Origin: Thermomicrobiales bacterium
GTDB lineage: Bacteria; Chloroflexota; Chloroflexia; Thermomicrobiales; UBA6265
Direction of reading: 5' to 3'
DNA: 64,000 bases
NCBI GenBank assembly: GCA_041390825.1
Contig: JAWKPF010000004.1
Coordinates: 129,088-193,087, forward strand
Shown in pieces: positions 2,949 to 64,000 of the stretch (the first letter of the stretch is position 1; each line of letters starts with the position of its first letter). Below the pieces are notes generated by a model. The model saw only the letters and a list, made by a program, of their open reading frames with translations. It was not told the origin of the DNA and did not search any database. The translations under genes were made by a program, and so were the position numbers.

Positions 2949-3434
2949 ATGCGGAAGCGTGGCTCGGTTCTGGCACTCACGTTACTTTCAGTGCTCATTG
3001 TGGTCGTTGCCTGTGGCCGCGCCAGCGAAGAGGACATCAACAAGGCGCTTGGCATCAAGCCGACCGCCACGTTGAGCGACGAGCAGATCGCCCAGGCAAC
3101 AGAATCGGCCGAAGCGGCAGCCTCGGCGATTGCCTCTGGCGCCACTCCTGTCGAATCCGGAATGCCGGTTGGCGATGTCCGCCTCGGACAACAGCAGTTC
3201 CAGTTCCAGTGCATGCAGTGCCATCAGCCGAGCGGCGCGGGTCAGGGCCCGGCGCTCACCACGGCCGATAGCCCGGCGATCGCGCTGACCGATCAGGAAA
3301 TCTTCGACATCGTCCGCACCGGCGAGGGGCATGGCACGCAAGCCGCGGTTTCTGAAGTCCGCGTCAACGACATGCAGCTCGCCAGCATCATCGCCTATAT
3401 CCGCGACCAGATCGCCACTGCCGAGGGAAGCTAG
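2949..3434 (+). CDS. Class I c-type cytochrome, probable lipoprotein
   Basis: Lipobox-like signal MRKRGSVLALTLLSVLIVVVAC. Single heme motif CMQCH. Distal Met candidate (VRVNDMQLASI). Confidence 0.75.
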   Translation: MRKRGSVLALTLLSVLIVVVACGRASEEDINKALGIKPTATLSDEQIAQATESAEAAASAIASGATPVESGMPVGDVRLGQQQFQFQCMQCHQPSGAGQGPALTTADSPAIALTDQEIFDIVRTGEGHGTQAAVSEVRVNDMQLASIIAYIRDQIATAEGS

Positions 3435-8686: not shown

Positions 8687-8766
8687 TTCCCTGTTCCGGA
8701 GCCTTCATGACGGTCGTTGCCGTTCGATCCATGCGTCGTCGCGGGCCGCAGTGCCTGTCAGGGGTG

Positions 8767-8862
8767 TCCAAGAGCAGGCACAGAGGCCTGCGGCTACGCG
8801 GGGATGGGCGGGTGGTTGGCATGTACCTCCAAGAGCAGGCACAGAGGCCTGCGGCTACGCGG
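8767..8862. repeat. Two identical 35-nt direct repeats (TCCAAGAGCAGGCACAGAGGCCTGCGGCTACGCGG) 61 bp apart, each holding a GCAGGC/GCCTGC hairpin
   Basis: Copies at 8767-8801 and 8828-8862, read directly. The locus sits between convergent genes. Confidence 0.9.
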
Positions 8863-9346
8863 CCACCACGGTTCCCGATTCGTCCAGCACCCAGACGGTG
8901 ATCGATTCCGCAGGGTCGACGGTGCAGGCGATATCGAATTTCCCCGGGTTCGGGAACCGCTGGGTGTAGGTTTGCCCTGGGAGCACGACGAACGGTCCGG
9001 CCCGTAGCGGCACCGAATCCTCATTGGTGACCGAGATCGCGGCTTCGTCGCCCGGTTGGAAGGTGATCTCCGTTGGCAGGGTGATGGCGGACTTCATGGT
9101 GTCGTTGTTCACTGCCGCGCCCGCGCCCTTTGGGATGACGAACGAGAGCCCGACCGGCTCATCGCCGCCGTTCCAGCGGTCGCTGAAGAGCGCCGCCACC
9201 AGGAGCGCCAATCCGCCGCCACCTACGACAACCGTGGTCAGGAGCTGCCGCCGCGACATTTTCTTGTCCGGGTTGGCGACCGGGGTGTTCTCGGTCGCGT
9301 CGTCTGTCGTCGTTGCTGATTCGTCGATCTCGTTGTGCGTATCCAT
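8855..9346 (-). CDS. Membrane-anchored hypothetical protein with a small beta-rich (cupredoxin-like?) ectodomain
   Basis: GGGGAG RBS before ATG. One TM (LLTTVVVGGGGLALLVAALF). Last gene of the minus-strand Sco/PCuAC operon. The fold call is tentative. Confidence 0.5.
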   Translation of the reverse strand: MDTHNEIDESATTTDDATENTPVANPDKKMSRRQLLTTVVVGGGGLALLVAALFSDRWNGGDEPVGLSFVIPKGAGAAVNNDTMKSAITLPTEITFQPGDEAAISVTNEDSVPLRAGPFVVLPGQTYTQRFPNPGKFDIACTVDPAESITVWVLDESGTVVAA

Positions 9347-9420: not shown

Positions 9421-10011
9421 CTACATCGTGGGCGAAGCTGCTGGCGAGGCTGCCGGAGTGGCATCCATCGCCATGGCCGGAGCGGGCCGCGACCAGACGC
9501 CCGAGATGGTCAGGTCACCAGCTTCGGTCGAAACGATCGCATCGCCCTCGGGCGCCGCGCTCTGCACAGTCACCGGCACGACGACCTCGCCGGCGCGCTC
9601 GAAGGTGAGCGTCAGGTCGAAGGTGTCGCCCGCGTTCAGATCGTGCTTCAGGCCGATGAGCATGATGTGGAATCCGCCTGGTTCGAGAGCAACGGTTTCA
9701 CCGGCGGGAATCTCGAGCCCATCGGTGAGCGGACGCATTTCCATGACGCCGTTGTTGTCGGCAATTTCATGAATCTCGACCACAGCCGACACGTCGGCTG
9801 CCGCGGCGATCAGGCGGTCGGCTTCGGAGCCGCCATTCTCGACGTGGAAATAGGCTGCCCCCGTGCCGCCCATGGCGTGACCGGACATTCCGCCGGCCAT
9901 GGGGGATGCCTCGGGAGTCGCGTCGTCATGCGCGGCGGCGATGCCGCCGAAACCAATCAATCCAATTGCCAGAGCCGCCAGGGCCAGCATGCGCAGTGCA
10001 ATTCGGTTCAT
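9421..10011 (-). CDS. PCu(A)C-type periplasmic copper chaperone (DUF461 family)
   Basis: Signal peptide. Met/His-rich N-terminus (PMAGGMSGHAMGG). Family motifs MEMRPL and PGGFHIMLIGL. GGAG RBS. Confidence 0.8.
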   Translation of the reverse strand: MNRIALRMLALAALAIGLIGFGGIAAAHDDATPEASPMAGGMSGHAMGGTGAAYFHVENGGSEADRLIAAAADVSAVVEIHEIADNNGVMEMRPLTDGLEIPAGETVALEPGGFHIMLIGLKHDLNAGDTFDLTLTFERAGEVVVPVTVQSAAPEGDAIVSTEAGDLTISGVWSRPAPAMAMDATPAASPAASPTM

Positions 10012-10044
10012 TTCTTTGCTCCTTTTTTCGGTTTCTGTGACGAG

Positions 10045-10668
10045 TTATTCGGAAATCAGGTGTTGCACGTCTTCCGTGATCATCGCGGGGTCGGTGCCGT
10101 AGGGATAGGTCAGCCGGAGCTTGCCCTCCTTGTCGATGACGTAGATCAGGGCGGTGTGATCGATCAGATAGCCGGTCGAGGAGTTGGGATACTCGACCCG
10201 CTTGATCGTGACGCCGTAGTCCTTCAGGAACTGCTCGGTCTGCGCGTCGTCGCCACGCAATCCAATGAAGTCCGGATCGAAGAAGTTCAGGTACTCCTGC
10301 ATGCGGGCTTGCGTGTCGCGCTCGGGATCGAACGTGACCATGATGAATTCGACTTCATCGGCTTCGTCGCCCAGGTCTTCCTTCACGATGGCGAAGTCGT
10401 TCAGCGTGGTTGGGCAGAGATCGGGGCAGGTGGTGTAGCCGAAGTAGATCAGCGCGACCTTTCCCTCTTCTTGCGCCAGCGAGTACGGCTCGCCATGCTG
10501 GTCGGTTAGCGCCAGGTCCGGGGCAGTGGCCGCGGGACTGATCTCGCCACCGTTGAACTCGTACGCCTCGGTGCGGTTCGTGGCCCAATAGATGACGCCC
10601 CCGGCAATGAGCACCAATAGGGCAAGCACTCCGAGGAGTTGGTAGCGGCGGTTGGACGATGTCGTCAT
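10045..10668 (-). CDS. SCO1/SenC-family copper chaperone / thiol-disulfide oxidoreductase
   Basis: N-terminal TM. CxxxC motif YFGYTTCPDLCP and a downstream conserved His (DHTALIYVIDKEG). AGGAG RBS. Confidence 0.9.
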   Translation of the reverse strand: MTTSSNRRYQLLGVLALLVLIAGGVIYWATNRTEAYEFNGGEISPAATAPDLALTDQHGEPYSLAQEEGKVALIYFGYTTCPDLCPTTLNDFAIVKEDLGDEADEVEFIMVTFDPERDTQARMQEYLNFFDPDFIGLRGDDAQTEQFLKDYGVTIKRVEYPNSSTGYLIDHTALIYVIDKEGKLRLTYPYGTDPAMITEDVQHLISE

Positions 10669-10689
10669 GGTGGTTCTCCTCCGGGCGCC

Positions 10690-11961
10690 CTAGAACGGCG
10701 ACCAGGTTGCGTATTCGTTCAGGCGGCTCAGCGAATCGGTGAGCAAGAGCGCGGCGATGAGCAGGATCAGGACTCCGCTGACCTGTTGCATGCGGGGGAG
10801 CCATGCCCGGAACCGGGACGATTCCGCCATGAACTTGTCCACGAGCACAGTTGCCAGCAGGAATGGAACGGCCAGACCCAGCGAGTAGATCGCCAGCAGG
10901 CCGGTGCCCTCGCGCACGGTCGCGTCCGCGGCTGCGATGGTGAGAATGCTGGCCAGCGCCGGGCCGATGCAGGGGGTCCAGCCCGCTCCGAACGCCACCC
11001 CGATCAGGAAGGTTCCGGCGCGTCCGTATGAGCGGCCGCCCAGATCCATCTTGACGGTGCGGTCGGCGAACGGGAGGCGCAACAATCCGAGCAGGTGCAG
11101 CCCCAGGATTGCCAGAAAGACGCCCCCGACGCGCGCGATCCAGATGCGGTACTCCTGCAACCAACCCCCGAGCGCCGTGGCGGAGGCTCCAAAGAGCATA
11201 AAGACCGTGGTGAAGCCAAGCACGAAGAGGAGCCCGTTGATGGCCGTGGCGCGGCGCGCGCGGCGCTTGACCTCCCGATCGGTGGAGCGGAGCTCGGCGA
11301 AGCTCATGCCGCTGATCACCGCCGCGTAGGTGGGAATCAGCGGAAAGACGCAGGGCGAAAGAAAGCTGAGCAATCCTGCCGCGAACGCTACCGGAATGCC
11401 CACCCGCGCCACGGTCGAGGTCACCTGGCTGGCATCGGTGACCGTGCCTGCCAGAGCATCCTCGATCAGCGTCAGGTCGTCCGCGTTCTCTTCGACCAGC
11501 GCGCCTTTCCACCGATAGAGGATTTCACCGTCCCGCCCGATCAGCAGGGTTTCCGGCACGCCAGTTGTTTCGAAGGCGCGCGCGAAACGATTGGAGGAGT
11601 CGCGCCAGACGGGGAAGGTGACGCCGTGGTCCTCAGCGAATGCCTGGACCGCGTCGTCCTGTCCGTTGCGGTCGATGCTCACCCCGACGACCTGCAACCC
11701 CTGATCGGCGTACCGATCACTGAGGGCCTGCAACCAGGGCATCTCCTCTTTGCAGGGAGTGCACCAGGTGGCCCAGGTGTTCAGCAGCACAACATCACCC
11801 TGCAGGTCTTGCAGCGAGACGGTGTCGCCGGTGGCGAGGTCGGTGGCCTCGAATTCGGGTGCGGTGGTGGCCGAGACGTTGCCAGTCAGCAGGAGCAGGG
11901 TAAGCAGTCCCAGCCCGAGCAAGACCAACGCGCGCGGTCCGCGAAGCGTAAAGCGATGCAT
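10690..11961 (-). CDS. Fusion of a TlpA/ResA-like thioredoxin domain with a CcdA/DsbD-type transmembrane electron-transfer domain
   Basis: Thioredoxin motif WATWCTPC in the N-terminal half. CcdA motif SFLSPCVFPLIP and a second Cys in GWTPCIGP within about 6 TM segments. Confidence 0.85.
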   Translation of the reverse strand: MHRFTLRGPRALVLLGLGLLTLLLLTGNVSATTAPEFEATDLATGDTVSLQDLQGDVVLLNTWATWCTPCKEEMPWLQALSDRYADQGLQVVGVSIDRNGQDDAVQAFAEDHGVTFPVWRDSSNRFARAFETTGVPETLLIGRDGEILYRWKGALVEENADDLTLIEDALAGTVTDASQVTSTVARVGIPVAFAAGLLSFLSPCVFPLIPTYAAVISGMSFAELRSTDREVKRRARRATAINGLLFVLGFTTVFMLFGASATALGGWLQEYRIWIARVGGVFLAILGLHLLGLLRLPFADRTVKMDLGGRSYGRAGTFLIGVAFGAGWTPCIGPALASILTIAAADATVREGTGLLAIYSLGLAVPFLLATVLVDKFMAESSRFRAWLPRMQQVSGVLILLIAALLLTDSLSRLNEYATWSPF

Positions 11962-12881: not shown

Positions 12882-14012
12882 ATGGATCCAGACCGGTTCG
12901 ATTCGCTTGCCAAGCGGCTTGGGGGGCGGATTTCGCGGCGCGCGTTCGTTGGCGCAGCAGCCGCAACGATGTTGGCGGTTCCGGCCGTTCCCTATCGCAG
13001 CACGGTGCTTGCACAAAGCGAACGGACCACGGCGATCGACCGCTATATCGCCGTCCGCACCTTCGCCTATGACAGCACGCGCGAGAAGGCCGAAGCCGAA
13101 CTGCCCGATCTGGTTGCGCACATGGAGGAGCAGCCGGGATTCGTTGGTATCGAGTGTGTCTGGGGCGAGACCGAGATCTATCTGATCGTTACGTTCCTCG
13201 ATGAGGCAACCTCGGTTCCGGGAATGGAAACGATCGACTGGTGGATCGAAACCCACATTCAGTCGACGCTCTATGGCGACTTCGAACAGTCCGAGGGGAA
13301 GGTCGTACTCCGCTCGTTTCTCTTTGCGGGATGCCCGTGCGATCTGGAGGATGACGACGACCCGTGCGGTTCCGATCTGCTGGTGTGCTGCCCGGTTTCC
13401 GAGAGCGAGGGAGAGCCTGGTGTTTGCCTGACCGCGGAAACCACCTGCCCGGCCGGCGGCGGAGCGGATGACGATCCCAGCGATGAAGAACTGACGCTCT
13501 CGGCAGGCGATCTCACCCCCATTGCCGGCGCGGCGGTCTCCTGCACGAGTGAAGGATGCGACTGCCCAGACGGTATCTGTGACGCCGGGCTGGCTTGCTG
13601 CACATCCACCGGTACCTGCCAATACACCTGCCCATGCGGATATGAAGGCTGTTACTGCGTCGGCAGTGTCGTGAATACCTGCGACGACGGTCTGATCTGC
13701 TGCGCTCCAGGTGAGATCGGCGGCGAAGGGACGTGCCAGTATTCGTGCTCCTGCAGCTATGAGGGATGCTCGTGCACGACCGGGGTCGATGGCGCTTGCG
13801 ACGCTGGACTTTCGTGCTGCGGCATCTTCAGCTCCGACCCCGGCAATATCGGCGCCTGTCTCAGTAGCTGCTCCAATGGCTCGACCAACCCATGCCCCGG
13901 CGCAGACGGCTGCGAGTGCATTCCCGGCACTTCGTGGATCTGCAACGCCGGTCTCGTTTGCTGCGGCGCCGAGGCTGGCGAATCCGGCATCTGCGCAAGT
14001 TCGTGCGCCTGA
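12882..14012 (+). CDS. TAT-leader protein with an ABM/Dabb-like alpha+beta domain (tentative) and C-terminal hyper-cysteine repeat modules (paralog 1)
   Basis: ATG 12882 after GGAG. Leader MDPDRFDSLAKRLGGRISRRAFVGAAAATMLAV. Four modules of type GCxCx(5-7)C[DN]xGLxCC...GxC plus one N-terminal variant. Confidence 0.7.
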   Translation: MDPDRFDSLAKRLGGRISRRAFVGAAAATMLAVPAVPYRSTVLAQSERTTAIDRYIAVRTFAYDSTREKAEAELPDLVAHMEEQPGFVGIECVWGETEIYLIVTFLDEATSVPGMETIDWWIETHIQSTLYGDFEQSEGKVVLRSFLFAGCPCDLEDDDDPCGSDLLVCCPVSESEGEPGVCLTAETTCPAGGGADDDPSDEELTLSAGDLTPIAGAAVSCTSEGCDCPDGICDAGLACCTSTGTCQYTCPCGYEGCYCVGSVVNTCDDGLICCAPGEIGGEGTCQYSCSCSYEGCSCTTGVDGACDAGLSCCGIFSSDPGNIGACLSSCSNGSTNPCPGADGCECIPGTSWICNAGLVCCGAEAGESGICASSCA

Positions 14013-14233: not shown

Positions 14234-15490
14234 GTGGATCCGAACCGATTCGACTCGTTCGCCAAGAAGCTGGGTAGCCGGCTTTCTCGCCGCGACATGA
14301 TGCGTGTCAGCGCCGCCACGGCCGTGGGCGCCATCGCTGTCAGCAAGTTCACCAGCGTGGCTGCTCAGGATGCGGGCACCACGGCCAAGGATCGCTTCAT
14401 CTCGGTGCGCACGTATGCGTACAGCGGCACCGAGGCGGATGCGGCTTCCGGACTGAGCGGCATCATCGCCGTTATGGAGCAGCAGCCAGGCTTTATCGAA
14501 TACAACCTCGTCTTCGGCGATGGGCAGATCCTGGCAATCTCGACGTTCCTCGATGAGACCACGGCGGTGGCCGCGGCGCAGCAGGAAGATGCCTGGATCA
14601 GCGCCAATGCCGCCAATATCCTGAGCGGCTCGCCGACGATTCAGAGTGGCGATGTCTTCCTCCGCTCCGAGCTGCACGCTGGTTGCGGTTGCATCACCGG
14701 AACGGAGGATCCCTGCCACTCCTCACGCCTCACCTGCTGTGCTACGACCGACCGCATGGGCGGCCCGGGTATCTGCCTTACCAACGAAACGACTTGCCCG
14801 GGCGCGATGCCGGCTGAACCGACCGCGACTGCGGCGCCAGATGAGCCGACCGCAGTTCCGGCATGCACGGGCGAAGGCTGCGCCTGCAACGGCGGCGTCC
14901 AGAACGCCTGCGACGATGGACTGGTCTGCTGCGGTGTGACCGAGCCCGGTGGCCCCGGCACCTGCGAGACGGAATCCGAATGCAATCCGACTTGCTCCAG
15001 CGAGGGCTGCACCTGTATCGGTGGCACCGAAGGCGCCTGCGATGATGGTCTTGTTTGCTGCGGCTCGAACCAGCCGGGCGGCTCCGGCCACTGCATGACC
15101 GAGGATGAGTGCAACCCGCCGTGCACCAGCGACGGATGCACTTGCACCGCCGGCACCCAGGGCGCCTGCGACGACGGTCTCGAATGCTGCGGCGCGGACA
15201 CGCCGGGCGGTCAGGGCACCTGCATGGCTTCGTGCCCCTGCACCGGCGACGGATGCGCGTGCACCACTGGCACCGATGGCAATTGCGATGACGGACTCGT
15301 CTGCTGCGCAGCCGACATGACCACTCCGGGTTCCCCGGGCACCTGCATGGCGGTCTGCGATTCCAGCGATTGCAACGGTCAGGAGAACTGCCCCTGCACT
15401 GCCGGCACCGAGGGCGCCTGCAACGATGGTCTCGAGTGCTGCGGCGCCGATACCCCGGGTGGACAGGGCACCTGCCAGAGCAGCTGCTAG
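14234..15490 (+). CDS. TAT-leader protein with an ABM/Dabb-like domain (tentative) and five hyper-cysteine repeat modules (paralog 2)
   Basis: GTG 14234 after GAGGAGG. Leader VDPNRFDSFAKKLGSRLSRRDMMRVSAATAVGAIAV. Five ACDDGL[VE]CC-type modules. I count 47 Cys in the C-terminal region. Confidence 0.7.
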   Translation: MDPNRFDSFAKKLGSRLSRRDMMRVSAATAVGAIAVSKFTSVAAQDAGTTAKDRFISVRTYAYSGTEADAASGLSGIIAVMEQQPGFIEYNLVFGDGQILAISTFLDETTAVAAAQQEDAWISANAANILSGSPTIQSGDVFLRSELHAGCGCITGTEDPCHSSRLTCCATTDRMGGPGICLTNETTCPGAMPAEPTATAAPDEPTAVPACTGEGCACNGGVQNACDDGLVCCGVTEPGGPGTCETESECNPTCSSEGCTCIGGTEGACDDGLVCCGSNQPGGSGHCMTEDECNPPCTSDGCTCTAGTQGACDDGLECCGADTPGGQGTCMASCPCTGDGCACTTGTDGNCDDGLVCCAADMTTPGSPGTCMAVCDSSDCNGQENCPCTAGTEGACNDGLECCGADTPGGQGTCQSSC

Positions 15491-15625: not shown

Positions 15626-16903
15626 CTATCCAAGCAAGGGGCGGATGGCCTCGGTTGCCGTGGATAGGGCCTGGGATGCGGTTTGCTCGCCGCGCAGCGC
15701 CTTCTGGATTTCGCGCCCGATCTCCAGCGTGATCTCCATATAGTTCCGGGTCACGAAGCTATCGAAGGGCGACTCCGCCTGCTGCCGCAGCACCGCCGCG
15801 ACCGGTGTGGTTGCCTGAATCTCCGGATCATCCAGCGACGAGAGCCGCGCCGGCAACCATCCCAGATCGGTCCATTGCCGTTTTTGCACCTCGGGACTGA
15901 GGTAGAACTCGAGGAGCTGCATGGCCAGGTCGGGATTTTGGGATGTCGAGGCGAGTGTCCAGCCATCGACAGCGTTGACGGTCGCGTTGTTTTCCGGTCC
16001 CTTTGGCATCACGGCCGGGATGACTTTTTCGGTGCCGGGCGCGGCGCCGCCGTTCATCACTTCCCAGGATGATGGAAAGGTCATGAACATGGCCATGCCG
16101 TCATATTGCATGCGGAATGCCACGGCGGTGGTGTCGATATTGCTGAGCGTGTCACCGGTCATGGAGGGCATGAGGTCGATCATGAGTTGCAACGCGTCGA
16201 CCCCGGGCGCATCGTCGAATGCAGGCTGCCCGGCCTCGTCCCACATGACGCCACCGGCCTGTTGCAAGAACGCCATCCAGTACGACGTGACGCCGCCGAT
16301 TCCTGCCGGGGCGCCCCAGGGCGCCATCATGCCGATGGGAAAGGGCGGTCCCTGAAACTCGGCGGCGAACCCTTTCAGTTCGTCCCAGGTCGTCGGTGGC
16401 CCGGTCAGCCCTTTTTCGTCGAAGAGGTTCTTGTTGTAGAACAGGAGCATGAGGGAGAGGGTCGGCATTACACCGTACTGCTGCCCCTCCCAGGACATGG
16501 ATGTTCCCTGCGCTGGCGCCAGATCGTTCACCAGCTCGTCCGGCAAGCGTGAGCCGATTTCCTGCAGGTACGGACTGAACTCGGGAATCATTGCCGAGTT
16601 GTAGAGTAGGTCATAGACAGGGGCGTCGGTGTCGAAGGCGGCCTGGCTGACCTGATCGATCGAGAAAAGCGGTCGGATGTCGTAGGTGATGGCAGTGTCG
16701 CGGTCGAACTTCCAGATATCCAGCATGTCGTTGCCGTAATCGTAGGTTCCCGGCGGCCGTGGCTCTGGCCGTCCCGCGGTGAGGACGGTCAACTGGTTGG
16801 CTTGTGCTCCGACCGGCGCAACGCCATGGCCCAGGGCGAGCCCTGTCCCGGCCGCCGCGCCCATTTTCATCAATCTACGCCGGTCGAGCCGTCGCATCTC
16901 CAT
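15626..16903 (-). CDS. ABC transporter extracellular solute-binding protein (family 1, sugar type), orphan
   Basis: TAT-like leader MEMRRLDRRRLMKMGAAAGTGLALG. Typical SBP_bac_1 length and W/Y-rich composition. AAGGTG RBS. No permease genes adjacent. Confidence 0.8.
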   Translation of the reverse strand: MEMRRLDRRRLMKMGAAAGTGLALGHGVAPVGAQANQLTVLTAGRPEPRPPGTYDYGNDMLDIWKFDRDTAITYDIRPLFSIDQVSQAAFDTDAPVYDLLYNSAMIPEFSPYLQEIGSRLPDELVNDLAPAQGTSMSWEGQQYGVMPTLSLMLLFYNKNLFDEKGLTGPPTTWDELKGFAAEFQGPPFPIGMMAPWGAPAGIGGVTSYWMAFLQQAGGVMWDEAGQPAFDDAPGVDALQLMIDLMPSMTGDTLSNIDTTAVAFRMQYDGMAMFMTFPSSWEVMNGGAAPGTEKVIPAVMPKGPENNATVNAVDGWTLASTSQNPDLAMQLLEFYLSPEVQKRQWTDLGWLPARLSSLDDPEIQATTPVAAVLRQQAESPFDSFVTRNYMEITLEIGREIQKALRGEQTASQALSTATEAIRPLLG

Positions 16904-17103
16904 CACCTTGTCACGTATCTGTTTCAGCCGGAGTGATGCTATCCGGGTCCGGTGTCCAGTGTCCAGTGTCGGGAAGCCGACGTTCCACGCATTTCGCAGC
17001 TTCCCTCCTGCACCCAGTCGAAGCAGGATGGCCGAGAACGGGGCGATGTGCGTAAACAGAGACGCGCCCTGGATCATACGGCGCACGCGCGGAGAGCAAT
17101 GCG

Positions 17104-57807: not shown

Positions 57808-59319
57808 CTAGAGCCCGTCGCCGCGCAGTTCTTCGATCTTGGCAGCCGCATCGTTGGCGGCGTCCTCGACCGACATCGATTCGGTGAGCGCGTTCTGCAG
57901 CATCTCCGGCACGATGATGTTCATGATTTCGGTCGATTCCGGGACCACCGGGAAGGGGATGCCGTAGGGGAGCATGGAGGTGGTCACATCGAGGTTGGGG
58001 ATCGAATCGAGCCGTTCCTTCATCCAGATGGTCTGGAAGCCGCGGATGTTGGAGGGGTTGGAGCCGACCCAGGCGAGCTTGGTGGACCATTCCGGACCGG
58101 TCATGAAGGCGATGAGCGCCCTGGCGGCGTCCAGATCGACATTGCCGCCATCGACCACGGAAGGATCGAAGACGTGGACATTCGATCCGCCGAAGACGAC
58201 CGCGCGGCGATCGGGGCCTTCCGGCAGGAAGCCATAGCGCATGTTCTCGACGACCTGATCGGCGATCTCTTTGTCCGCGCCGGTGGCAGTGGCGGCGAGA
58301 TCGTTCATCTTCGCGTACTCGGAGGGATGGGCGATCATCATGCCGAGGGTGCCGGCGATGAATGGCGCCTGATTCTCGGTCTGGGTGTTGGTCAGCGCAG
58401 AGGTCGGCACCGACTTGTCGGTGACGTACATCTGATAGTAGGCCTGGAGCGCGGCTTTGGAGCCGTCATTGTTGACCCAGATCTCCTCATAGGTGGGGTT
58501 CTCCGCAGCTTCGTCGAGCGCGCCGCCACCATATGCCCACATGGCCGGCATGAAGCGGAACGGGGTGTTGCCGGCATTGACGCGGGCGACGAGACCGTAG
58601 CCGTCCTTGCCGGTGTTGTCCTTGATCTGCTTCGAGTACGCGACGAGATCGTCCCACGTGGCCGGCGGCGCATCGGGATCGAGACCGGCCTCCTCGAAGA
58701 TGGCCGCATTCCAGATGAGGGCCATGGTTTCGTTGTTGGTGGGGACGCCATAGGTCTTGCCGTCATAGGTGACCGACTTCATGGCACCTGGCCAGTATTC
58801 CTCGACCGGGTAGCCGGCATCGGCTGGGCCGAATTCCTGAAGCTGGCCCTTGGCGGCGAACTCGACGCCCCAGAGGATCGGCATCTTGGCGACCATCGGC
58901 GCGGCATTGCCCAGCGCGGCGGTGCGGATCTGGTCCAGCATGTCGTTATAGGTCAGGCTGGTGATGTTGACCTTGATGTTGGGATAGGTAGCCGCGAATG
59001 CTTCCCAAAATTCCTTGTCGATGTCTTTGGTGATTTGCGGTTCGGCATCGGCCGGACCAACGTACCAGTAGGAGACTTCGCCGGCATAGTCGAGCGGCAC
59101 CACCTTGGCGACCTCGGCGGCGGTATCGACCTCGAGGGTACCGGCTTGCGCCACGATGGTTTCCGGAGTCCATTCGGTTGTGTCGATGGTGCCGTCCTGG
59201 GCCAGGGTCAAGGCCGAGGGGAGGAAGGCGGCTCCGGCGCCCGCTGCTGCGCCATATGCGAGGAACTTGCGGCGGTTCAATTCCTTATTGAAGAGTTCGC
59301 GATATCGCTGCGTTGACAT
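57808..59319 (-). CDS. Sugar ABC transporter substrate-binding protein (family 1), TAT-like leader
   Basis: AAGGAG RBS before ATG 59319. Leader NRRKFLAYGAAAGAGAAFLPSALTLAQD. Confidence 0.85.
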   Translation of the reverse strand: MSTQRYRELFNKELNRRKFLAYGAAAGAGAAFLPSALTLAQDGTIDTTEWTPETIVAQAGTLEVDTAAEVAKVVPLDYAGEVSYWYVGPADAEPQITKDIDKEFWEAFAATYPNIKVNITSLTYNDMLDQIRTAALGNAAPMVAKMPILWGVEFAAKGQLQEFGPADAGYPVEEYWPGAMKSVTYDGKTYGVPTNNETMALIWNAAIFEEAGLDPDAPPATWDDLVAYSKQIKDNTGKDGYGLVARVNAGNTPFRFMPAMWAYGGGALDEAAENPTYEEIWVNNDGSKAALQAYYQMYVTDKSVPTSALTNTQTENQAPFIAGTLGMMIAHPSEYAKMNDLAATATGADKEIADQVVENMRYGFLPEGPDRRAVVFGGSNVHVFDPSVVDGGNVDLDAARALIAFMTGPEWSTKLAWVGSNPSNIRGFQTIWMKERLDSIPNLDVTTSMLPYGIPFPVVPESTEIMNIIVPEMLQNALTESMSVEDAANDAAAKIEELRGDGL

Positions 59320-59518
59320 CTTTGCTCCTTGTTGGCTCAGCAACGAGCCGGGTGCGGTTCGAACAGATCGATCGGAAAACCTGCCGGTAAGCATACCGGG
59401 AGTGGACTTCGAGGTGCTCCTTTCGCGCAAGCAGAAACGGCCGATCCGGGCTGATTCGAGAGAGAACGGCGAGATCGAGCACCGGCATCTTCCGGTGCGT
59501 AGCGAGACTGGAGGTGCC

Positions 59519-59548
59519 GTTATACCCATTGCGCTCGCGGGCTGTCAA
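59519..59548 (-). promoter_or_regulatory. Candidate near-consensus sigma-70 promoter for the sugar ABC operon
   Basis: On the minus strand: TTGACA, 18 nt, TATAAC. This implies a leader of about 190 nt before the SBP start. Confidence 0.4.
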
Positions 59549-59833
59549 GCATCGGCAGCAACCTGTGCAACGTGCCTGTTTTTCCGCGAGCGAGGCAATG
59601 GCAAATCCCCATCGACCTTGGTTCTCCTGCACGAATAGTGCGCAATGAAGCTGAAGATTTGGCAAGGGAATCACGGCGCCTTGTGGGCATGACGCCAGGG
59701 GTTCCGCGCGCTTAGGGGGAACAGGGCCGCTGGGATCAGCATGACACGATTGACGGAGATCGTTTGGGCCGGCACACCTGACAATTACCGGCAGACACGC
59801 GCTCGAGCACGAAATGGGGGGACGGAGGCACCG

Positions 59834-61147
59834 ATGGCAAAGAAGCAGACGAAGGCGGAGAAGCCGGACGAGATTCAGCAGATCATCCCGGATGCGTGGC
59901 CGAAATATGCGCCGGCGGGAAAGGAGCCGGTGCGGATTCGGGATCTGAACGTGATCCTGACTGCGCCAGACGGCATCCGGCTGGTCATCGTGAAGGTGGA
60001 GACGAGCGAGCCGGGGCTCTATGGGCTGGGTTGCGCGACGTTCACCCAGCGGCCTATGGCGGTGGTGGAGGCGATCGAGCACTACATCAAGCCGATGGCG
60101 ATCGGGCGCGATGTGCATGACATCGAGGACCTTTTTCAGACCGGGTATCTCTCGTCGTACTGGCGCAGCGGGCCGGTGCTGAACAATGCATTGTCGGGGC
60201 TCGACATGGCGTTGTGGGACATCAAGGGGAAGCTGGCGGGGATGCCGGTCTACCAGCTTTTCGGTGGCAAGTCACGCCGAGCGGCGAATGTCTACGTGCA
60301 TGCCTCGGGGAACGATTTTGCTGAGGTGGAGGAATCGGCCAGGGAGTTCTGGGAGCAGGGATATCGCTATATCCGATGCCAGGTGGCGGTACCGAACTCG
60401 GCGACGTACGGGGTGTCGGGCAAGAGCATGAAGGCGGCCTACCACCTCGACCCGAAGCAGGAGTCGTGGGATCCGGACGCCTACGCGCGTATCGTGCCGA
60501 AGCTGTTCGAGCATATGCGCGCGGCGATGGGCGATGAGGTGGAGTTCCTGCACGATATCCACGAACGGGTGCCGCCGATCACGGCGATTCGCATTGCAAA
60601 GGAAGTCGAGCCGTATCGGTTGTTCTTCCTGGAAGACCCGTTCGCGCCGGAGGATAACGGCTATTTCCCATTGCTGCGGCAGCATTCGGCGGTGCCGATC
60701 GCGATGGGTGAACTGTATGTGAATCAGGCGGAGTACATCGATCTGGTGAAGGATCGGTTGATCGACTTCATGCGGGTGCATATCTCGGATATCGGCGGAT
60801 TGACCAACGCGCGCAAGCTGGCGGCGTATTGCGAGTACTTTGGCGTGCGGACGGCCTGGCACGGACCGGGGGATGCCTCGCCGGTGGCGCATGCGGCGAA
60901 CTTGCAGCTCGACCTGAACACGCCGAACTTCGGTATCCAGGAAGCGTATCTGCCACCAGAGAAGACCCGTGCGGTTTTCCCGGGCACGCCGGAGATACAT
61001 GACGGCATGATGTGGTCGAACGAGCAGCCGGGCCTGGGGATCGATATCGACGAGAAGCTGGCGGCGAAATATCCCTTCCCGGAGCATTCGATCAATGGGG
61101 CGTGGCCGCCGGTTCGGTTGAAAGACGGGACGGTGCAAAGGCCGTAG
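59834..61147 (+). CDS. Enolase-superfamily dehydratase (ManD/RspA-like, mandelate racemase/muconate lactonising family)
   Basis: ATG 59834 after GGAGG. N-terminal capping domain (LVIVKVETSEPGLYGLGCATF). Metal and acid/base region (FLHDIHER, FLEDP, MGE). Confidence 0.8.
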   Translation: MAKKQTKAEKPDEIQQIIPDAWPKYAPAGKEPVRIRDLNVILTAPDGIRLVIVKVETSEPGLYGLGCATFTQRPMAVVEAIEHYIKPMAIGRDVHDIEDLFQTGYLSSYWRSGPVLNNALSGLDMALWDIKGKLAGMPVYQLFGGKSRRAANVYVHASGNDFAEVEESAREFWEQGYRYIRCQVAVPNSATYGVSGKSMKAAYHLDPKQESWDPDAYARIVPKLFEHMRAAMGDEVEFLHDIHERVPPITAIRIAKEVEPYRLFFLEDPFAPEDNGYFPLLRQHSAVPIAMGELYVNQAEYIDLVKDRLIDFMRVHISDIGGLTNARKLAAYCEYFGVRTAWHGPGDASPVAHAANLQLDLNTPNFGIQEAYLPPEKTRAVFPGTPEIHDGMMWSNEQPGLGIDIDEKLAAKYPFPEHSINGAWPPVRLKDGTVQRP

Positions 61148-61288
61148 GTGGGGCGGGGACGGCGGAAGCATCACCCGCTCGGTGCGATTGTGAAGTATGA
61201 TCGGACCGAACCCAGCGGACCTATTCATATGGAATGTGCGTGTGGTGTCGTTCACGTGGAGTGGCACGTCGCGCGGAGAGGGCAAGGC

Positions 61289-62419
61289 ATGGACGATCGC
61301 AGTTTCGATTCGCTTGTGAAGGCAGTTGCTCTCGGGGCGAGCCGCCGCCGCGTGTTGAAGGGGATGCTCGGCCTGGGAGGAGCGGCGCTGGTTGGAAGCG
61401 TCGCGATGGAGGGCGACGCGGATGCCGCGCGGCGTCCGACGCCAACACCCAAGCCGATTCGGTGTCCCGGCCGGCAAACCTGGAACGGATCGGAGTGTGT
61501 CTGTCCTGATGACGCGCCTTCCAAGTGCGGCCCTGATTGTTGCACCGAAGGTGAGATCACGCCCGGAAGCCCAGGGTACTCCGAGTGTTGCGATAACGCG
61601 TGTTGTTTCGGTACGTGTTACGGCGAAGAGCTTTGTTGTCCGACAAATACGCCCGATGGGGGTGGGCTGCCCATAGCGAGTGTTTGCGCCAACGGCGAGT
61701 GCTGCCTGTTGCCAAACGTTTGCATCAACGGCGCGTGTGTGCCGTTCTCTGGTTGTGAATCGAATGACGATTGTGGAGACTGCGAAACCTGCAACCCGAG
61801 GACGGGCCAATGCAGCTCGTTGTGCACTGCCGATCTTCCCCAGTGCTGCGTCAATGGCTTCGGTGAGTACTGCATTCCGAGTGGAGAAACGTGCTGTTCC
61901 AGCGGTTCTGACTGCACGGAACCGTGTTCGTATTGCAACGATGTCGTCAGGTACTGCGTCGACCGATGTGACAATCCCGGCGAGTGTTGTGCCGGCGCGA
62001 ATGGGGATGACTGCTGCCCGGCCGATCGCTGCGTTCCGGGACAAGGGTGTTGCGCGGAAGGCACGAGCGCGTGTGGTACAGGTTGCTGCGACAACGCCAC
62101 CGAAACCTGCGATGGAAACGGCAGTTGTGTTTGCAATGCGGGCTTGATCGAGTGCGATGGCGTGTGCATCGATGCGCAATGTTGCGGGAGCGACGAATCG
62201 CCGTGTATCGAACTTGGGTACGATCCCGATTGCGTCGCGTGCTCAAATGGCGAGTGCGCTACCGCGGGATTCGATTTTCAGAGTTGCGGCACCGCTTTTC
62301 ACAGTTGGTGTTCCAACGGCCAATGCCTTGCGTGCATTCCGTATCTCTCGTACGGGTGTACCTACGACAATCAGTGCTGCAATGGGACTTGTATCGGGGG
62401 CAGATGCGACACGCATTGA
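61289..62419 (+). CDS. TAT-leader hyper-cysteine secreted protein (third member of the MDxxxFDS-leader family, no ABM-like domain)
   Basis: Leader MDDRSFDSLVKAVALGASRRRVLKGMLGLGGAALVG. The mature part is dominated by Cys and CC doublets (SECCDNACCFGTC, GECCAGANGDDCCPADRC, NQCCNGTC). Confidence 0.65.
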   Translation: MDDRSFDSLVKAVALGASRRRVLKGMLGLGGAALVGSVAMEGDADAARRPTPTPKPIRCPGRQTWNGSECVCPDDAPSKCGPDCCTEGEITPGSPGYSECCDNACCFGTCYGEELCCPTNTPDGGGLPIASVCANGECCLLPNVCINGACVPFSGCESNDDCGDCETCNPRTGQCSSLCTADLPQCCVNGFGEYCIPSGETCCSSGSDCTEPCSYCNDVVRYCVDRCDNPGECCAGANGDDCCPADRCVPGQGCCAEGTSACGTGCCDNATETCDGNGSCVCNAGLIECDGVCIDAQCCGSDESPCIELGYDPDCVACSNGECATAGFDFQSCGTAFHSWCSNGQCLACIPYLSYGCTYDNQCCNGTCIGGRCDTH

Positions 62420-62472
62420 TCGGCTGCATCCAGCGATGATTCCGCTGGATCAGTGCGTGCTTCAGGGATGAT

Positions 62473-64000
62473 GTGACGCTCCGAATCTTGGAGACAGGAG
62501 GATACGACGGGCCAAGTCTTTGGCATGACCGGCCCGTCGTGTGGGGGATTGTTGCAAGGGCTTCGGCAGAGACGCCGGACATCGATCGTCTGCTGGTGTT
62601 GCATCTCGAGATCGAAGCCCTGGATCGACGTCTGGATCGAACGCGGCTCACCCCGTATTCGTTGCCACCGATTCCTGACCGTGTAGACGCACCGTGGATG
62701 CTTGCCTGGGCGACGGCCGGATTGCAGCGGCTTGCCGGCGACAATGTCTCGTTCTTTGGCGCCCGTGAGCTGGAAGAAGCTGGGACCAGCGAGATCGTGG
62801 TCGAGTGCGGGCACCAACAGACGGGGCTGTTGGCGCTTCGGATCGCGTTGCAGCAGCTGAATGCAAGTGCAGACGCCAACCGAGTGCGAATGGCGCTGGA
62901 ATTGGAGCAGGCGTTTGCGAAACGTCTTGCGCCGGTTTCGGCGTCTCGGCGGCCAACGGCTGGACTGGCGTGTATTTTGGAGGCTGCGCGCACGCGGGAG
63001 ATCCCTATCACGTCGCTCGACCCGCACGGCCTGGTGCGCGAACTGGGACATGGAGTCTACCGGCGGCGGTTGCGCCATACGAGCACATCGAACACGTCCT
63101 ACCTTGGCACGCTCATCGCGCAAGACAAGCATCTCTCATTGCACTATCTGGCAGAGTGTGGGTTGCCGGTGCCCGACACGTTGCTGGCGCGCGATGCCGG
63201 CCAGGCGGTTGCCAACGCGAGGCAGATTGGGTTCCCGGTCGTTGTCAAACCGAACGACGAAGGAAACTCGGCTGGTCTGCATCTGGATTTGCGGAACGAG
63301 GAAGAGGTGCGAGCCGCCTTCGAGGTCACCGCTGGGATCAGCCGGTCGGGAACCGTGGTCGTGCAGCGGTTTCTGACCGAACGGCACTACCGCGTGCTGG
63401 TGGTTGGTGACCGGATTGTCGGGATTGCCGAGCGAATTGCCGCGCACGTGGTGGGCGACGGAGAGCATTCGATCCGGGAGTTGGCGGAGATCGAGAACCG
63501 AAATCCGCGACGAGGAACGCTGATGTCCGACCGGCTCAAGACGATCGCCATCGACGAGACGTCCGAACGAATACTGGTCAAGCAGGGATTTTCGTTGGAC
63601 GACGTGCCACACCCGGGACTCCGGTTGGAATTGCAACGAATCGACGATCTCGAAGCGGGAGGCGAGGCGATCATCCAGACCGGCAAGACGCATCCAGACA
63701 ACGAGGCCATCATCGTTTCGGCTGTGCGGGCCATGGAGCTCGATATCGCTGGGGTCGATCTGGTGGCCACGGATATCGAGGCGTCGATATGGGAAACATC
63801 CGGCGGCATACTCGAAGTCAATCGCGATACTGGGTTCGCGCTCATCCAGTTCCCAACTTCAGAGGGCGCGATCGATCCTGGTCCGGCAGTAATCGAATCG
63901 CTCTTTCCGCCGGGAGCGCCGGTGCGTGTGCCGCTCGTCGCGGTGACGGGTGGGAGTGGAACCGGTGCGGTGACCCGGGCGATCGGGCGGTTGTTGACCG
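62473..64000 (+). CDS. Cyanophycin-synthetase-like enzyme (N domain plus ATP-grasp domain plus start of a Mur-ligase-like domain), 3'-truncated by the window
   Basis: Not in the ORF track because there is no stop in the window. Frame-1 translation from GTG 62473 gives VTLRILETGGYDGPSLW ... FPVVVKPNDEGNS ... HYRVLVVGDRIVGIAERIAAHVVGDGEHSIRELAEIENRNPRRG ... VPLVAVTGGSGTG, colinear with CphA blocks. Confidence 0.75.
   Translation, partial: MTLRILETGGYDGPSLWHDRPVVWGIVARASAETPDIDRLLVLHLEIEALDRRLDRTRLTPYSLPPIPDRVDAPWMLAWATAGLQRLAGDNVSFFGARELEEAGTSEIVVECGHQQTGLLALRIALQQLNASADANRVRMALELEQAFAKRLAPVSASRRPTAGLACILEAARTREIPITSLDPHGLVRELGHGVYRRRLRHTSTSNTSYLGTLIAQDKHLSLHYLAECGLPVPDTLLARDAGQAVANARQIGFPVVVKPNDEGNSAGLHLDLRNEEEVRAAFEVTAGISRSGTVVVQRFLTERHYRVLVVGDRIVGIAERIAAHVVGDGEHSIRELAEIENRNPRRGTLMSDRLKTIAIDETSERILVKQGFSLDDVPHPGLRLELQRIDDLEAGGEAIIQTGKTHPDNEAIIVSAVRAMELDIAGVDLVATDIEASIWETSGGILEVNRDTGFALIQFPTSEGAIDPGPAVIESLFPPGAPVRVPLVAVTGGSGTGAVTRAIGRLLT

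Follow-up and report, generated by a model that had tools for sequence, protein, structure and literature searches.

A large hyper-cysteine protein family of uncultured Thermomicrobiales, probably exported behind a conserved twin-arginine-type leader

The gene considered here lies at positions 61289 to 62419 of a 64,000-nucleotide stretch of contig JAWKPF010000004.1, from a Thermomicrobiales bacterium (assembly GCA_041390825.1); by the window we mean the whole of that stretch. The gene encodes a precursor of 376 residues, 64 of them cysteine, and we think it probable that the product is an exported, fully disulfide-bonded, acidic and modular member of a large Thermomicrobiales family, for which a structural or binding role outside the cell or at its surface would be the most likely one. 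What we infer about the Tat (twin-arginine translocation) route, the cleavage site, the oxidation after export, the shape of the stalk and the biological role runs as follows. The precursor would carry a twin-arginine-type signal of 46 residues, in which an amphipathic prefix specific to the lineage (MDDRRFDSLVKALA) stands ahead of SRRxVLK; export would most probably go through Tat, and the prefix might be the handle for a leader-binding factor; signal peptidase would cut after A44-D45-A46; and the mature chain, beginning ARR-PTPTPKP, would oxidise outside the cytoplasm into some 32 disulfides. The product would be a rigid stalk of beta-hairpins, built from a constant 14-Cys base module that the paralogs have in common and a variable tail that is particular to each of them, and the expansion of the paralogs, to 10-35 leader-bearing genes per genome, would have diversified the specificity of an extracellular or surface protein.

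That the gene is real can be said plainly. It belongs to an open reading frame (ORF) that runs from 61148 to 62419 on the forward strand, and we place its start at the internal ATG at 61289, which gives the N-terminus MDDRSFDSLVK, because the N-termini of all homologs coincide with the Met encoded there. Measured against a 59%-identical ortholog in a related locus (L002; L numbers are our labels for such loci), the ratio of non-synonymous to synonymous substitution rates (dN/dS) is 0.10, with 64 of 64 Cys kept, and the gene is under purifying selection. The DNA is 63% GC and holds long ORFs in several frames, among them a 635-aa ORF on the minus strand (60272..62179), and this is the kind of setting in which a random open frame, or the shadow of an opposite-strand gene, might be mistaken for a gene. 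The minus-strand ORF, however, also overlaps the well-supported ManD-type gene upstream, and for that reason is itself the spurious one; the dN/dS value, the retention of every Cys, the hundreds of homologs that begin at the same Met and the confident structural model rule out a chance origin, so that its probability is negligible. An earlier note on this DNA, made from the letters alone, had quoted four peptide strings and a PTPTPKP linker from the product, all of which are present, and had placed the end of the gene 53 nt ahead of the GTG of a same-strand gene resembling CphA (cyanophycin synthetase); the coordinates bear this out, with TGA at 62417-62419 and GTG at 62473.

The composition of the product is extreme. 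Of the precursor's residues 17% are cysteine, a share that rises to 19.4% in the mature chain and compares with about 0.8% in other ORFs of the related loci, and there are 13 CC doublets; Gly stands at 12.7%, D+E at 13.7% against 3.3% for K+R, and the protein is strongly acidic. We use the name family A for the proteins defined by this leader, the junction ARRPTPTPKP and a 14-Cys module, all three of which the 61289 protein has, and the Cys count is even in 111 of 120 of them (binomial p = 2e-23) and a multiple of four in 53; the leaders are practically free of Cys, with a single one in all 120. In exported proteins a bias towards even Cys numbers is accepted as indicating disulfide bonds (PMC2823432), and this parity, taken with the nature of the related repeats, suggests that the 64 Cys would form about 32 disulfides outside the cytoplasm. 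Cysteine at 19%, a twin-arginine-type leader and the putative metal-binding motif MopE in one family member could also be the marks of a metal-thiolate protein, metallothionein-like or a copper or iron-sulfur store, that is loaded in the cytoplasm and exported folded, given that Tat typically moves folded, cofactor-bearing proteins (PMC6708511). We consider this very unlikely, and reject metal clusters in favour of disulfides on the even parity, because metal-thiolate clusters impose none, and on the absence of any excess of multiples of four (only 53, when 111 of 120 counts are even). The modules, moreover, look like disulfide-stapled extracellular repeats, which some members carry outright, His is just 0.6% of the 61289 protein, which has no CxxC-rich ferredoxin-type motif, and conservation extends to all 64 of its Cys, which occupy paired hairpin positions in a model of high confidence.

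That model, obtained with AlphaFold2 (AF2) from a 121-sequence alignment, has a mean predicted local distance difference test score (pLDDT) of 86.6, with most values over 90 once residue 59 is reached, and consists solely of short beta-hairpins. Foldseek against the PDB gave nothing significant, the best matches (E 0.13-1) being R-spondin furin-like repeats, EGF-type modules and megalin, and a sequence search of the PDB with the family profile gave 0 matches at E<=1. To judge from the model, the likeness to known extracellular repeats (R-spondin furin-like, EGF-like, TNFR-type, Dicty_CTDC) lies in short disulfide-stapled beta-hairpins set in an elongated stalk, and some paralogs carry true Dicty_CTDC, Ephrin_rec_like, TSP1 or LDLa repeats: Dicty_CTDC is found in the tails of seven other members (E 3e-45), and Ephrin_rec_like, TSP1_spondin, TNFR-like, LDLa and MopE in one each. 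The 61289 protein differs from all of these in being bacterial, in having no Pfam match and no sequence match in the PDB, in its best Foldseek E value of 0.13, and in a 14-Cys module that is in no library.

Along the chain, the parts of the protein (Table 1) are conserved to very different degrees. Two alignments were used, A1 with 23 sequences and A2 with 121, and in the larger one the junction with the mature chain hardly varies, with A47 in 120, R48 in 116, R49 in 121 and P50 in 114 of the 121. The 14-Cys module behind it is 55-70% identical across more than 100 proteins with differing tails; 13 of its Cys are invariant in A1 (C59, C70, C72, C80, C84, C85, C100, C101, C105, C106, C110, C116 and C117), C133 is kept in at least 90%, and the 61289 protein has all 13 together with the invariant G81, P82, D102, G108, E113 and E114. 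The run of hairpin modules from aa 134 to 347 shows numerous insertions and deletions among orthologs and paralogs. At the C-terminus, four Cys (C357, C363, C364 and C373) are present in at least 90% of full-length homologs; knottin-like spacing is frequent in the C-terminal units of family A, and that of the 61289 protein has the six-Cys knottin spacing, its sole fold match being a weak one to hainantoxin-IV (1ryv, E 7, 29 aligned columns).

At E<=1e-3 the protein has 315 homologs; the top match aligns along the entire chain at 82% identity, and many match only aa 1-~150, at 55-70%. A scan of one genome per species gave 45 distinct family A loci, 44 of them in Thermomicrobiales/Chloroflexia metagenome-assembled genomes (MAGs), a scan of viral contigs gave no relative, and family A has so far been seen only in uncultured Thermomicrobiales. 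The one remaining locus, a 2.8-kb contig binned as Pseudomonadales (L016, JAGRIN010000400.1), encodes a protein whose first 75 residues are identical to those of a Thermomicrobiales protein (L019), and it is probably mis-binned. There is also a 4709-bp Logan contig from SRR19611629 (L049) that is almost identical to the window from 60 to 64 kb, with dN 0.003 and dS 0.02 for the Cys gene, which tells us that this run sampled the same population; the protein encoded on it, 99% identical, is missing from the homolog list, whose best match is the one at 82%. Single MAGs hold at least 10-13 family A copies, in tandem arrays of up to six. In two 20-kb loci from two MAGs (L010 and L014), tandem arrays of 6-7 leader-bearing Cys-rich ORFs mix family A with proteins that have an AARRGFSGP-type junction, and shortened or split ORFs in these arrays suggest rapid turnover. 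The ortholog at 9944-11058 of L004 (MAG ACE_NR_CHLO10) is split into the overlapping ORFs 9944-10564 and 10555-11058, by a frameshift or an assembly error, and a second family A member lies just upstream of it at 7717-9093. We found no description of family A in literature searches on Thermomicrobiales/Chloroflexi, cysteine-rich and twin-arginine, nor of family A, its leader class or the ligase clade discussed below in the literature and the curated libraries searched.

The leader is of particular interest, since it ties the gene to a second family in the same window. The earlier note had taken the 61289 gene for the third member of a family whose other two members lie at 12.9-15.5 kb, with the same type of leader and, in that pair only, an ABM-like domain. 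The part of this that concerns the leader stands: BLASTP matches the 61289 leader to those of the 12882 and 14234 proteins at E 0.009 and 5e-5, and hhalign aligns the leaders of families A and B (our name for the family of the pair) with a probability of 97.9% and E 5e-13 over 38 columns, the common pattern being MDxxRFDSxxKxL..SRR. So does the ABM-like call, given that aa 54-141 of the 14234 protein has an ABM/ferredoxin-like fold (SnoaB/ActVA-Orf6/MhuD, Foldseek probability 1.0), whereas the 61289 protein has no Pfam match to such a domain, no such Foldseek match and an all-beta-hairpin model. The kinship of the cargos does not hold. The profile-profile comparison of the mature regions, which the earlier note had named as a way to check its claim, gives an hhalign probability of 0.2% (E 0.3), and BLASTP of the 61289 protein against the other two finds nothing significant beyond aa 1-60; the earlier note had itself said that such an outcome would refute its claim, and we reject membership in one family with the pair. 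As paralogs with 43% identity, the 12882 and 14234 proteins make up part of a Thermomicrobiales family B of their own, with 198 matches, and the 61289 gene belongs, by its sequence, to a separate and larger family that has its own 14-Cys N-terminal module. Families A and B are alike in their homologous leaders, Cys-rich cargo and lineage; they differ in that family B has the ABM/ferredoxin-like domain, regular C-x-C...CD.GL.CC repeats, no AARRP junction and mostly odd Cys counts. In family B the counts are odd in 82 of 120 proteins (P0241-P0360), with a mode of 39 and with 40 and 47 in the two window copies, which is the opposite of family A, and the odd number points to a single conserved Cys that is left unpaired, perhaps in the first module that follows the ABM-like domain.

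Turning to the leader as an export signal, its family A consensus over 46 residues is MDDRRFDSLVKALAxGxSRRSVLKGLLGLGGAAL....(A/T/V/S)-(D/E)-A. All but one of 121 members have both arginines (R19/R20), and the pattern [STN]RRx[VLFIMA][LFIVM][KR] accommodates 113 of the 121; at the predicted cleavage site, the residue at -3 is A, T, V, S or G in every one of the 121, and that at -1 is A in 120 of them and A or G in all. In the prefix, F6, D7 and A14 are invariant in the 23 sequences of A1 and at least 90% conserved in the 121 of A2, and AF2 places a helix at residues 4-14, with low confidence. The hydrophobic region (h-region) of the 61289 leader is MLGLGGAALVGSVAM, 15 residues with 4 Gly. The Tat consensus is S-R-R-x-F-L-K followed by a weakly hydrophobic h-region (PMC6708511), and the SRRRVLK of the 61289 leader agrees with S/T-R-R-x-F-L-K, as do its h-region and A-x-A site with what is expected of a Tat signal. 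Two solute-binding-type proteins in the window carry ordinary twin-arginine signals (57808-59529 and 15626-17086, both on the minus strand, NRRKFLAYGAAAG... and RRRLMKMGAAAG...), with few Cys and no MDxxRFD prefix, and from this it follows that the prefix is not general to the Tat signals of this genome.

Some Tat signals with long n-regions are bound by dedicated chaperones, as in the pairs TorA/TorD, DmsA/DmsD and NapA/NapD. The leader resembles such signals in S-R-R-x-hydrophobic-L-K, in a weakly hydrophobic, Gly/Ala-rich h-region and in A-x-A, and its conserved stretch before the arginines could be a binding handle. It is unlike them in that the cargo has no recognisable cofactor domain and would need some 32 disulfides, in that the prefix recurs across 2,119 clusters with unrelated cargos, in that no chaperone gene was found nearby and in that the Tat hidden Markov models stay below threshold.

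Several points weigh against an exported protein with a role at or beyond the cell surface, and should be set out together. The curated Tat models score below their cutoffs (PF10518 12.5 against 22.7 bits, TIGR01409 13.2 against 16.7), only 8 of 121 members reach E<=0.01 with them, and searches of the 61289 protein against Pfam, NCBIfam, PADLOC and PHROGs gave nothing but this sub-threshold Tat signal. The two Arg of the mature N-terminus lie on the far side of the predicted cleavage site and not ahead of it. The usual cargo of Tat is a folded protein, and a disulfide-dependent cargo fails Tat proofreading unless it is oxidised in the cytoplasm; unstructured stretches are tolerated only when they are limited and hydrophilic (PMC6708511). 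For that reason a cargo of 330 aa that needs 32 disulfides is an awkward Tat substrate. No fold or sequence match gives a function, whether from the PDB profile search, Foldseek, PADLOC or PHROG, and no anchor signal (lipobox, sortase motif or C-terminal transmembrane segment) was seen in the 61289 protein, so that the placement at the cell surface is a guess. As regards the route, there are possible ways out: these hydrophilic precursors could cross Tat unfolded, perhaps aided by a factor that binds the prefix; they could be oxidised ahead of export; or the leader could be used by the Sec pathway in Thermomicrobiales.

What the leader does do with great regularity is to keep company with cysteine. 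Across related loci amounting to about 800 kb, the prefix leader stands on 55 ORFs of at least 150 aa, of which 54 have at least 6% Cys (median 15.6%); the 19 ORFs with ordinary twin-arginine signals, from which the prefix is absent, have a median of 0.2% and a maximum of 3.6%, and the 457 other ORFs 0.8%. These loci were picked by way of family A, and the count is biased accordingly; some 20 leader-bearing ORFs with cargos other than that of family A are equally Cys-rich. A profile of the leader only (47 positions) against 1.84 billion representative proteins gave 2,119 clusters at E<=1e-3 and 214 at E<=1e-10. Cargos were inspected for the best 150 of the 2,119 matches, without taxonomy, and among these there are 62 new ones that have a cargo of at least 80 aa and lack the strict family A motifs; 55 of the 62 have at least 6% Cys (median 16%), and most of the remaining 7 resemble frameshifted calls. 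The junctions fall into AARRPTPTPKP-CPG (family A), AARRG(F/Y)SGP and DARRSS...TTPPP, and there are at least four junction/cargo classes among the matches listed. The earlier note had proposed at least two cargo architectures behind one leader type in this genome, and the data support that idea strongly and carry it well past two: the leader marks a broader class of hyper-cysteine cargos. PEP-CTERM/exosortase, LPXTG/sortase and GlyGly-CTERM/rhombosortase are dedicated classes of sorting signal and cargo. The leader is like them in being a short, conserved terminal signal on many otherwise unrelated secreted proteins of one lineage, and unlike them in that the family A signal is N-terminal and Tat-type. 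Secreted cysteine-rich repeats are known and so are Tat signals; their systematic union under one cargo-specific leader is new.

A conserved leader and base module followed by strongly variable Cys-rich tails, in many tandem paralogs, is also what one might expect of a secreted polymorphic family of toxin or antimicrobial type, in which a conserved prepro-leader and constant module would deliver hypervariable, disulfide-rich 'warheads'. The knottin-like six-Cys spacing at the C-terminus, with its weak match to a spider toxin, points the same way, as do the TIR-STAND NTPase genes that recur near family genes and a multi-domain layout like the one named in the title of PMC6262176. We nevertheless hold this to be decidedly unlikely. 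With 330 aa the mature chain is large, and it is also strongly acidic; the constant module is retained in the mature protein, not cleaved off with a pro-region; genes of immunity or transporter type do not recur beside family members; PADLOC and PHROG give no match; and orthologs are under purifying, not diversifying, selection. Conotoxin-type superfamilies are animal venom or secretory products with Sec-type signals. Family A is like them, and like the secreted cysteine-rich repeat proteins of PMC6262176 as far as its title describes them, in a conserved signal, variable tandem disulfide-rich domains and many paralogs, and it is unlike the conotoxin-type superfamilies in being bacterial, much larger and acidic, with the constant module kept in the mature chain. 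When 633 ORFs of the related loci were clustered, no maturation, chaperone or transporter gene was recurrent outside two syntenic contexts, and the only recurrent neighbours there were proteins with four-fold bacterial SH3 (SH3_3) repeats, Amidase_2 proteins (muramoyl-alanine amidase-like) and the TIR-STAND NTPases; the first two of these fit, weakly, an envelope setting.

We come now to the gene downstream, which the earlier note had described as cyanophycin-synthetase-like and which matches NF010623 at E 1e-104 on the 509 aa that lie within the window. Its N-terminus reads VTLRILETGGYDGPSLWHDRPVV, matching the N-termini of its orthologs, which are 702-721 aa when complete (L002 6004-8139, L005 11550-13685, L048 8001-10127) against about 880-980 aa for CphA1. 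The ATP-grasp domain is intact; in the M domain, the P-loop reads VTGGSGTGAV or VTGDDDRSEV where CphA1 has VTGTNGKTT, the Mur-ligase Pfam domains PF08245 and PF02875 are absent, and the scores lie below the NCBIfam cutoffs (467 against 877 bits, the 467 being that of a full-length ortholog, and 399 against 850 bits). On these grounds we reject the idea of a true cyanophycin synthetase, and the M domain has, by the look of its P-loop, lost its ATP site. CphA2 has an N domain, an active G domain and a truncated, inactive M domain (PMC10273328), and the ligase has what appears to be the same layout; it differs from CphA2 in being nearer to CphA1 by sequence (7wac E 5e-89, against 7ta5 E 3e-46 for cyanobacterial CphA2), in being restricted to Thermomicrobiales and in always standing behind a hyper-Cys gene. 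Membership in the cyanobacterial CphA2 clade is unsupported, and the CphA2-like architecture apparently arose within a CphA1-like lineage. Close homologs are few, about 10 among 5.8 billion proteins, those with named sources all being from Thermomicrobiales, and the next scores belong to canonical CphA1 at no more than 39% identity.

Every intact copy of this M-degenerate ligase, nine of nine, lies directly behind a family A gene on the same strand, and the copies fall into two paralogous clades. Seven of them form clade 1 (the window, L002, L004, L005, L048, L049 and L050), with gaps of 25-106 nt; the two of clade 2 (L006 and L007) are about 40% identical to clade 1, have no P-loop and lie, in two MAGs, within a cluster of 4-5 leader-bearing genes, again behind a family A gene. 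In 80 metagenome loci of canonical CphA, which served as the control, a prefix-leader ORF was seen 0 times and GxxGKT was kept 79 times. The earlier note had suggested asking whether homologs elsewhere adjoin cphA-like genes; for this particular subfamily they do. The constant position of the ligase, itself a matter of gene order, suggests a functional partnership, which we regard as quite conceivable while leaning slightly away from it, and several observations count against a strict link. The synteny of clade 1 takes in far more than the two genes (ATP-binding cassette permeases, three MR_MLE genes, the Cys gene, the ligase, a 234-aa gene and BrkB), and since this is one orthologous, broadly syntenic region, its seven cases amount to one evolutionary event. 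In L003 (11316-11774, the same as L001 7382-8041) the ligase has shrunk to a 219-aa N-terminal remnant beside an intact Cys gene (406 aa, 70 Cys); L018 and L034, from two other MAGs and syntenic to L006/L007, have no ligase; and most of the 10-35 leader genes of a genome have no ligase neighbour. The L003 genome, it may be added, retains the clade 2 ligase of L007.

Co-transcription of the two genes, which the earlier note had put forward, is possible. The 53-nt gap has no sigma-70-type promoter and no terminator in a consensus scan, and folds no better than shuffled sequences (z = -0.99). It does hold a perfect hairpin (Table 1), and stronger GC-rich stem-loops follow the Cys stop in relatives (L005 11474-11552, L048 7892-8003, L006 12533-12720, L007 11828-12021; -38 to -81 kcal/mol for the gap); most of these have no U tract, and in L007 the hairpin is followed by a T run and is terminator-like. 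The stem-loops may be terminators, attenuators or stabilisers of the 3' end, and co-transcription, if it takes place, may be attenuated. On the other side of the gene, the 141-nt upstream gap also folds no better than shuffles (z = -1.45), the scan finds neither promoter nor terminator in the upstream or the downstream gap, its single terminator-like match lies within the coding sequence, at chance expectation, and an Rfam scan of 60900-62700 gave no match.

If there is a partnership, the most specific form of it would be that the ligase acts on, or together with, the 61289 protein and perhaps every protein of the leader class; it would recognise the leader or junction in the cytoplasm and add amino acids, or a short chain of Asp/Arg type, to a carboxylate of the precursor before Tat export. 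There are precedents of a kind in the tailing of ribosomal protein S6 by RimK and in the ATP-grasp maturases that act on leader-bearing precursors, and operons are known in which a highly expressed precursor gene is followed first by a hairpin and then by the gene for its enzyme. The nine of nine adjacent copies, against 0 of 80 canonical loci, speak for this idea, and so do the scarcity of close enzyme homologs and their origin, where named, in the family's own lineage, the short gaps of clade 1 and the fit between modification before export and a Tat route. It remains unlikely to our minds, when a genome has 10-35 leader genes and only one or two such enzymes, when L003, L018 and L034 keep the Cys gene without an intact enzyme, and when seven of the nine cases are a single event. 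In clade 2, moreover, some 130-190 nt separate the two genes and include a strong hairpin, which in L007 resembles a terminator; the Cys proteins next to the enzyme have no conserved C-terminus (CDTH, CDTQ, CVRY, CEQS); and the enzyme keeps the whole N-G-M layout of CphA, like the free-standing polymerase CphA2. Precursors of ribosomally synthesised and post-translationally modified peptides have a short core peptide behind the leader and lie next to their maturase; in the present case a leader and an adjacent ATP-grasp gene are present, yet the 'core' would be, by the model, a self-folding protein of 330 aa, and most paralogs have no adjacent enzyme. An exported, disulfide-bonded structural or binding protein is still, in our view, the better account.

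A few features of the surroundings are worth recording, and the coordinates of the main ones are collected in Table 1. A ManD-type gene is likewise found upstream in L002, L003, L004, L005 and L048 and belongs to the conserved synteny. Behind the ligase, relatives have a third same-strand gene (L048 10211-10915, L005 13732-14472) for a protein of 234-246 aa with an ordinary Tat-type signal, MNRRAMMTG..., 79% identical between the two and with no Pfam or NCBIfam match; in the window it would fall beyond 64000. In L050 a partial ORF (3017-3328), which may correspond to the third gene of L048/L005, overlaps with its called start the end of the ligase gene (3020) by 4 nt. In four MAGs the second leader-gene cluster is immediately preceded by a phage portal-like gene (SPP1 Gp6-like, E 5e-12; L006 8050-9362, L007 6942-8270, L018 5321-6718, L034 4129-5457 (-)), and a few genes further upstream there is a conserved 600-aa protein (L007 2057-3859); no other phage genes were seen there.

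Table 1. Positions of the gene, the parts of its product and the neighbouring features (window coordinates unless a locus is given)
Feature	Position	Strand	Evidence or remark
Hyper-cysteine precursor gene including stop, 376 aa, family A member	61289..62419	+	ORF, homolog N-termini, dN/dS, AF2
Predicted signal peptide, aa 1-46: amphipathic prefix, twin-arginine motif, Gly/Ala-rich h-region, A-D-A site	61289..61426	+	Alignment of 121 members, weak TAT_signal/TIGR01409 matches, homology to 12882/14234 leader
Leader prefix DDRSFDSLVKAVA, aa 2-14 (family consensus DDRRFDSLVKALA), before RR	61292..61330	+	Conservation, AF2 helix
Twin-arginine motif S-R-R-R-V-L-K (family consensus SRRSVLK)	61340..61360	+	113/121 members fit motif
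Predicted mature start: ARR, PTPTPKP linker, IR	61427..61462	+	Junction ARRPTPTPKP conserved family-wide
Family-defining module, aa 59-133, 14 Cys: CPGxQTW..CVCP..CGPDCC..SECCDNACCFGTCYGEELCCPTN...C	61463..61687	+	Homolog identity, pLDDT 91-97
Variable run of Cys-rich beta-hairpin modules, aa 134-347	61688..62329	+	Indels, pLDDT mostly 82-96
C-terminal six-Cys unit ACIPYLSYGCTYDNQCCNGTCIGGRC, knottin-like spacing C-x7-C-x5-CC-x3-C-x4-C	62330..62407	+	Cys 349, 357, 363, 364, 368, 373
Perfect 8-bp hairpin ATCCAGCG / CGCTGGAT, 7-nt loop, no U tract	62428..62450	+	53-nt gap; G-U variant kept in L049
Cyanophycin-synthetase-like ATP-grasp ligase, 5' part, 509 codons, runs off window	62473..64000	+	NF010623 E 1e-104
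ManD/galactonate-dehydratase-type enolase, upstream neighbour	59741..61147	+	NF043051 E 5e-126; context only
Family B gene: same leader type, ABM-like domain, C-x-C...CD.GL.CC repeats	12882..14012	+	Sequence, hhalign
Second family B gene, GTG start, ABM/ferredoxin-like fold aa 54-141	14234..15490	+	Sequence, Foldseek
Recurrent family A neighbours (SH3 repeats, Amidase_2, TIR-STAND NTPases)	L015 11409-12338, L010 12337-13548, L008 3-1868	-	Clustering

To our knowledge bacteria rarely make proteins with dozens of disulfides, and here one twin-arginine-type leader stands on thousands of hyper-cysteine proteins (15-19% Cys, even-numbered) and on almost nothing else, which raises the question of how such proteins are kept export-competent and then oxidised. 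They amount to a large body of protein 'dark matter' from uncultured soil Thermomicrobiales that Pfam, NCBIfam, the PDB, PADLOC and PHROG do not cover, and the disulfide-stapled modules, for which the model is confident, might attract interest as stable scaffolds. The pairing with a relative of cyanophycin synthetase that lacks the arginine-adding domain is a lead both on a new use of an enzyme fold and on the function of the Cys-rich family. At its most ambitious, the proposal would be that the leader MDDRRFDxLxKxLA-SRRxVLKG, carried by at least 2,119 protein clusters, is a signal devoted to the sorting and maturation of hyper-disulfide proteins, with a leader-binding factor that keeps the precursors Tat-competent and M-degenerate CphA-like ligases that modify them in the cytoplasm; we offer this as a speculation that will more probably than not need revision, and one we rate as a rather slim chance, but if it were true it would mean a previously unknown bacterial route for the secretion and maturation of disulfide-rich proteins.

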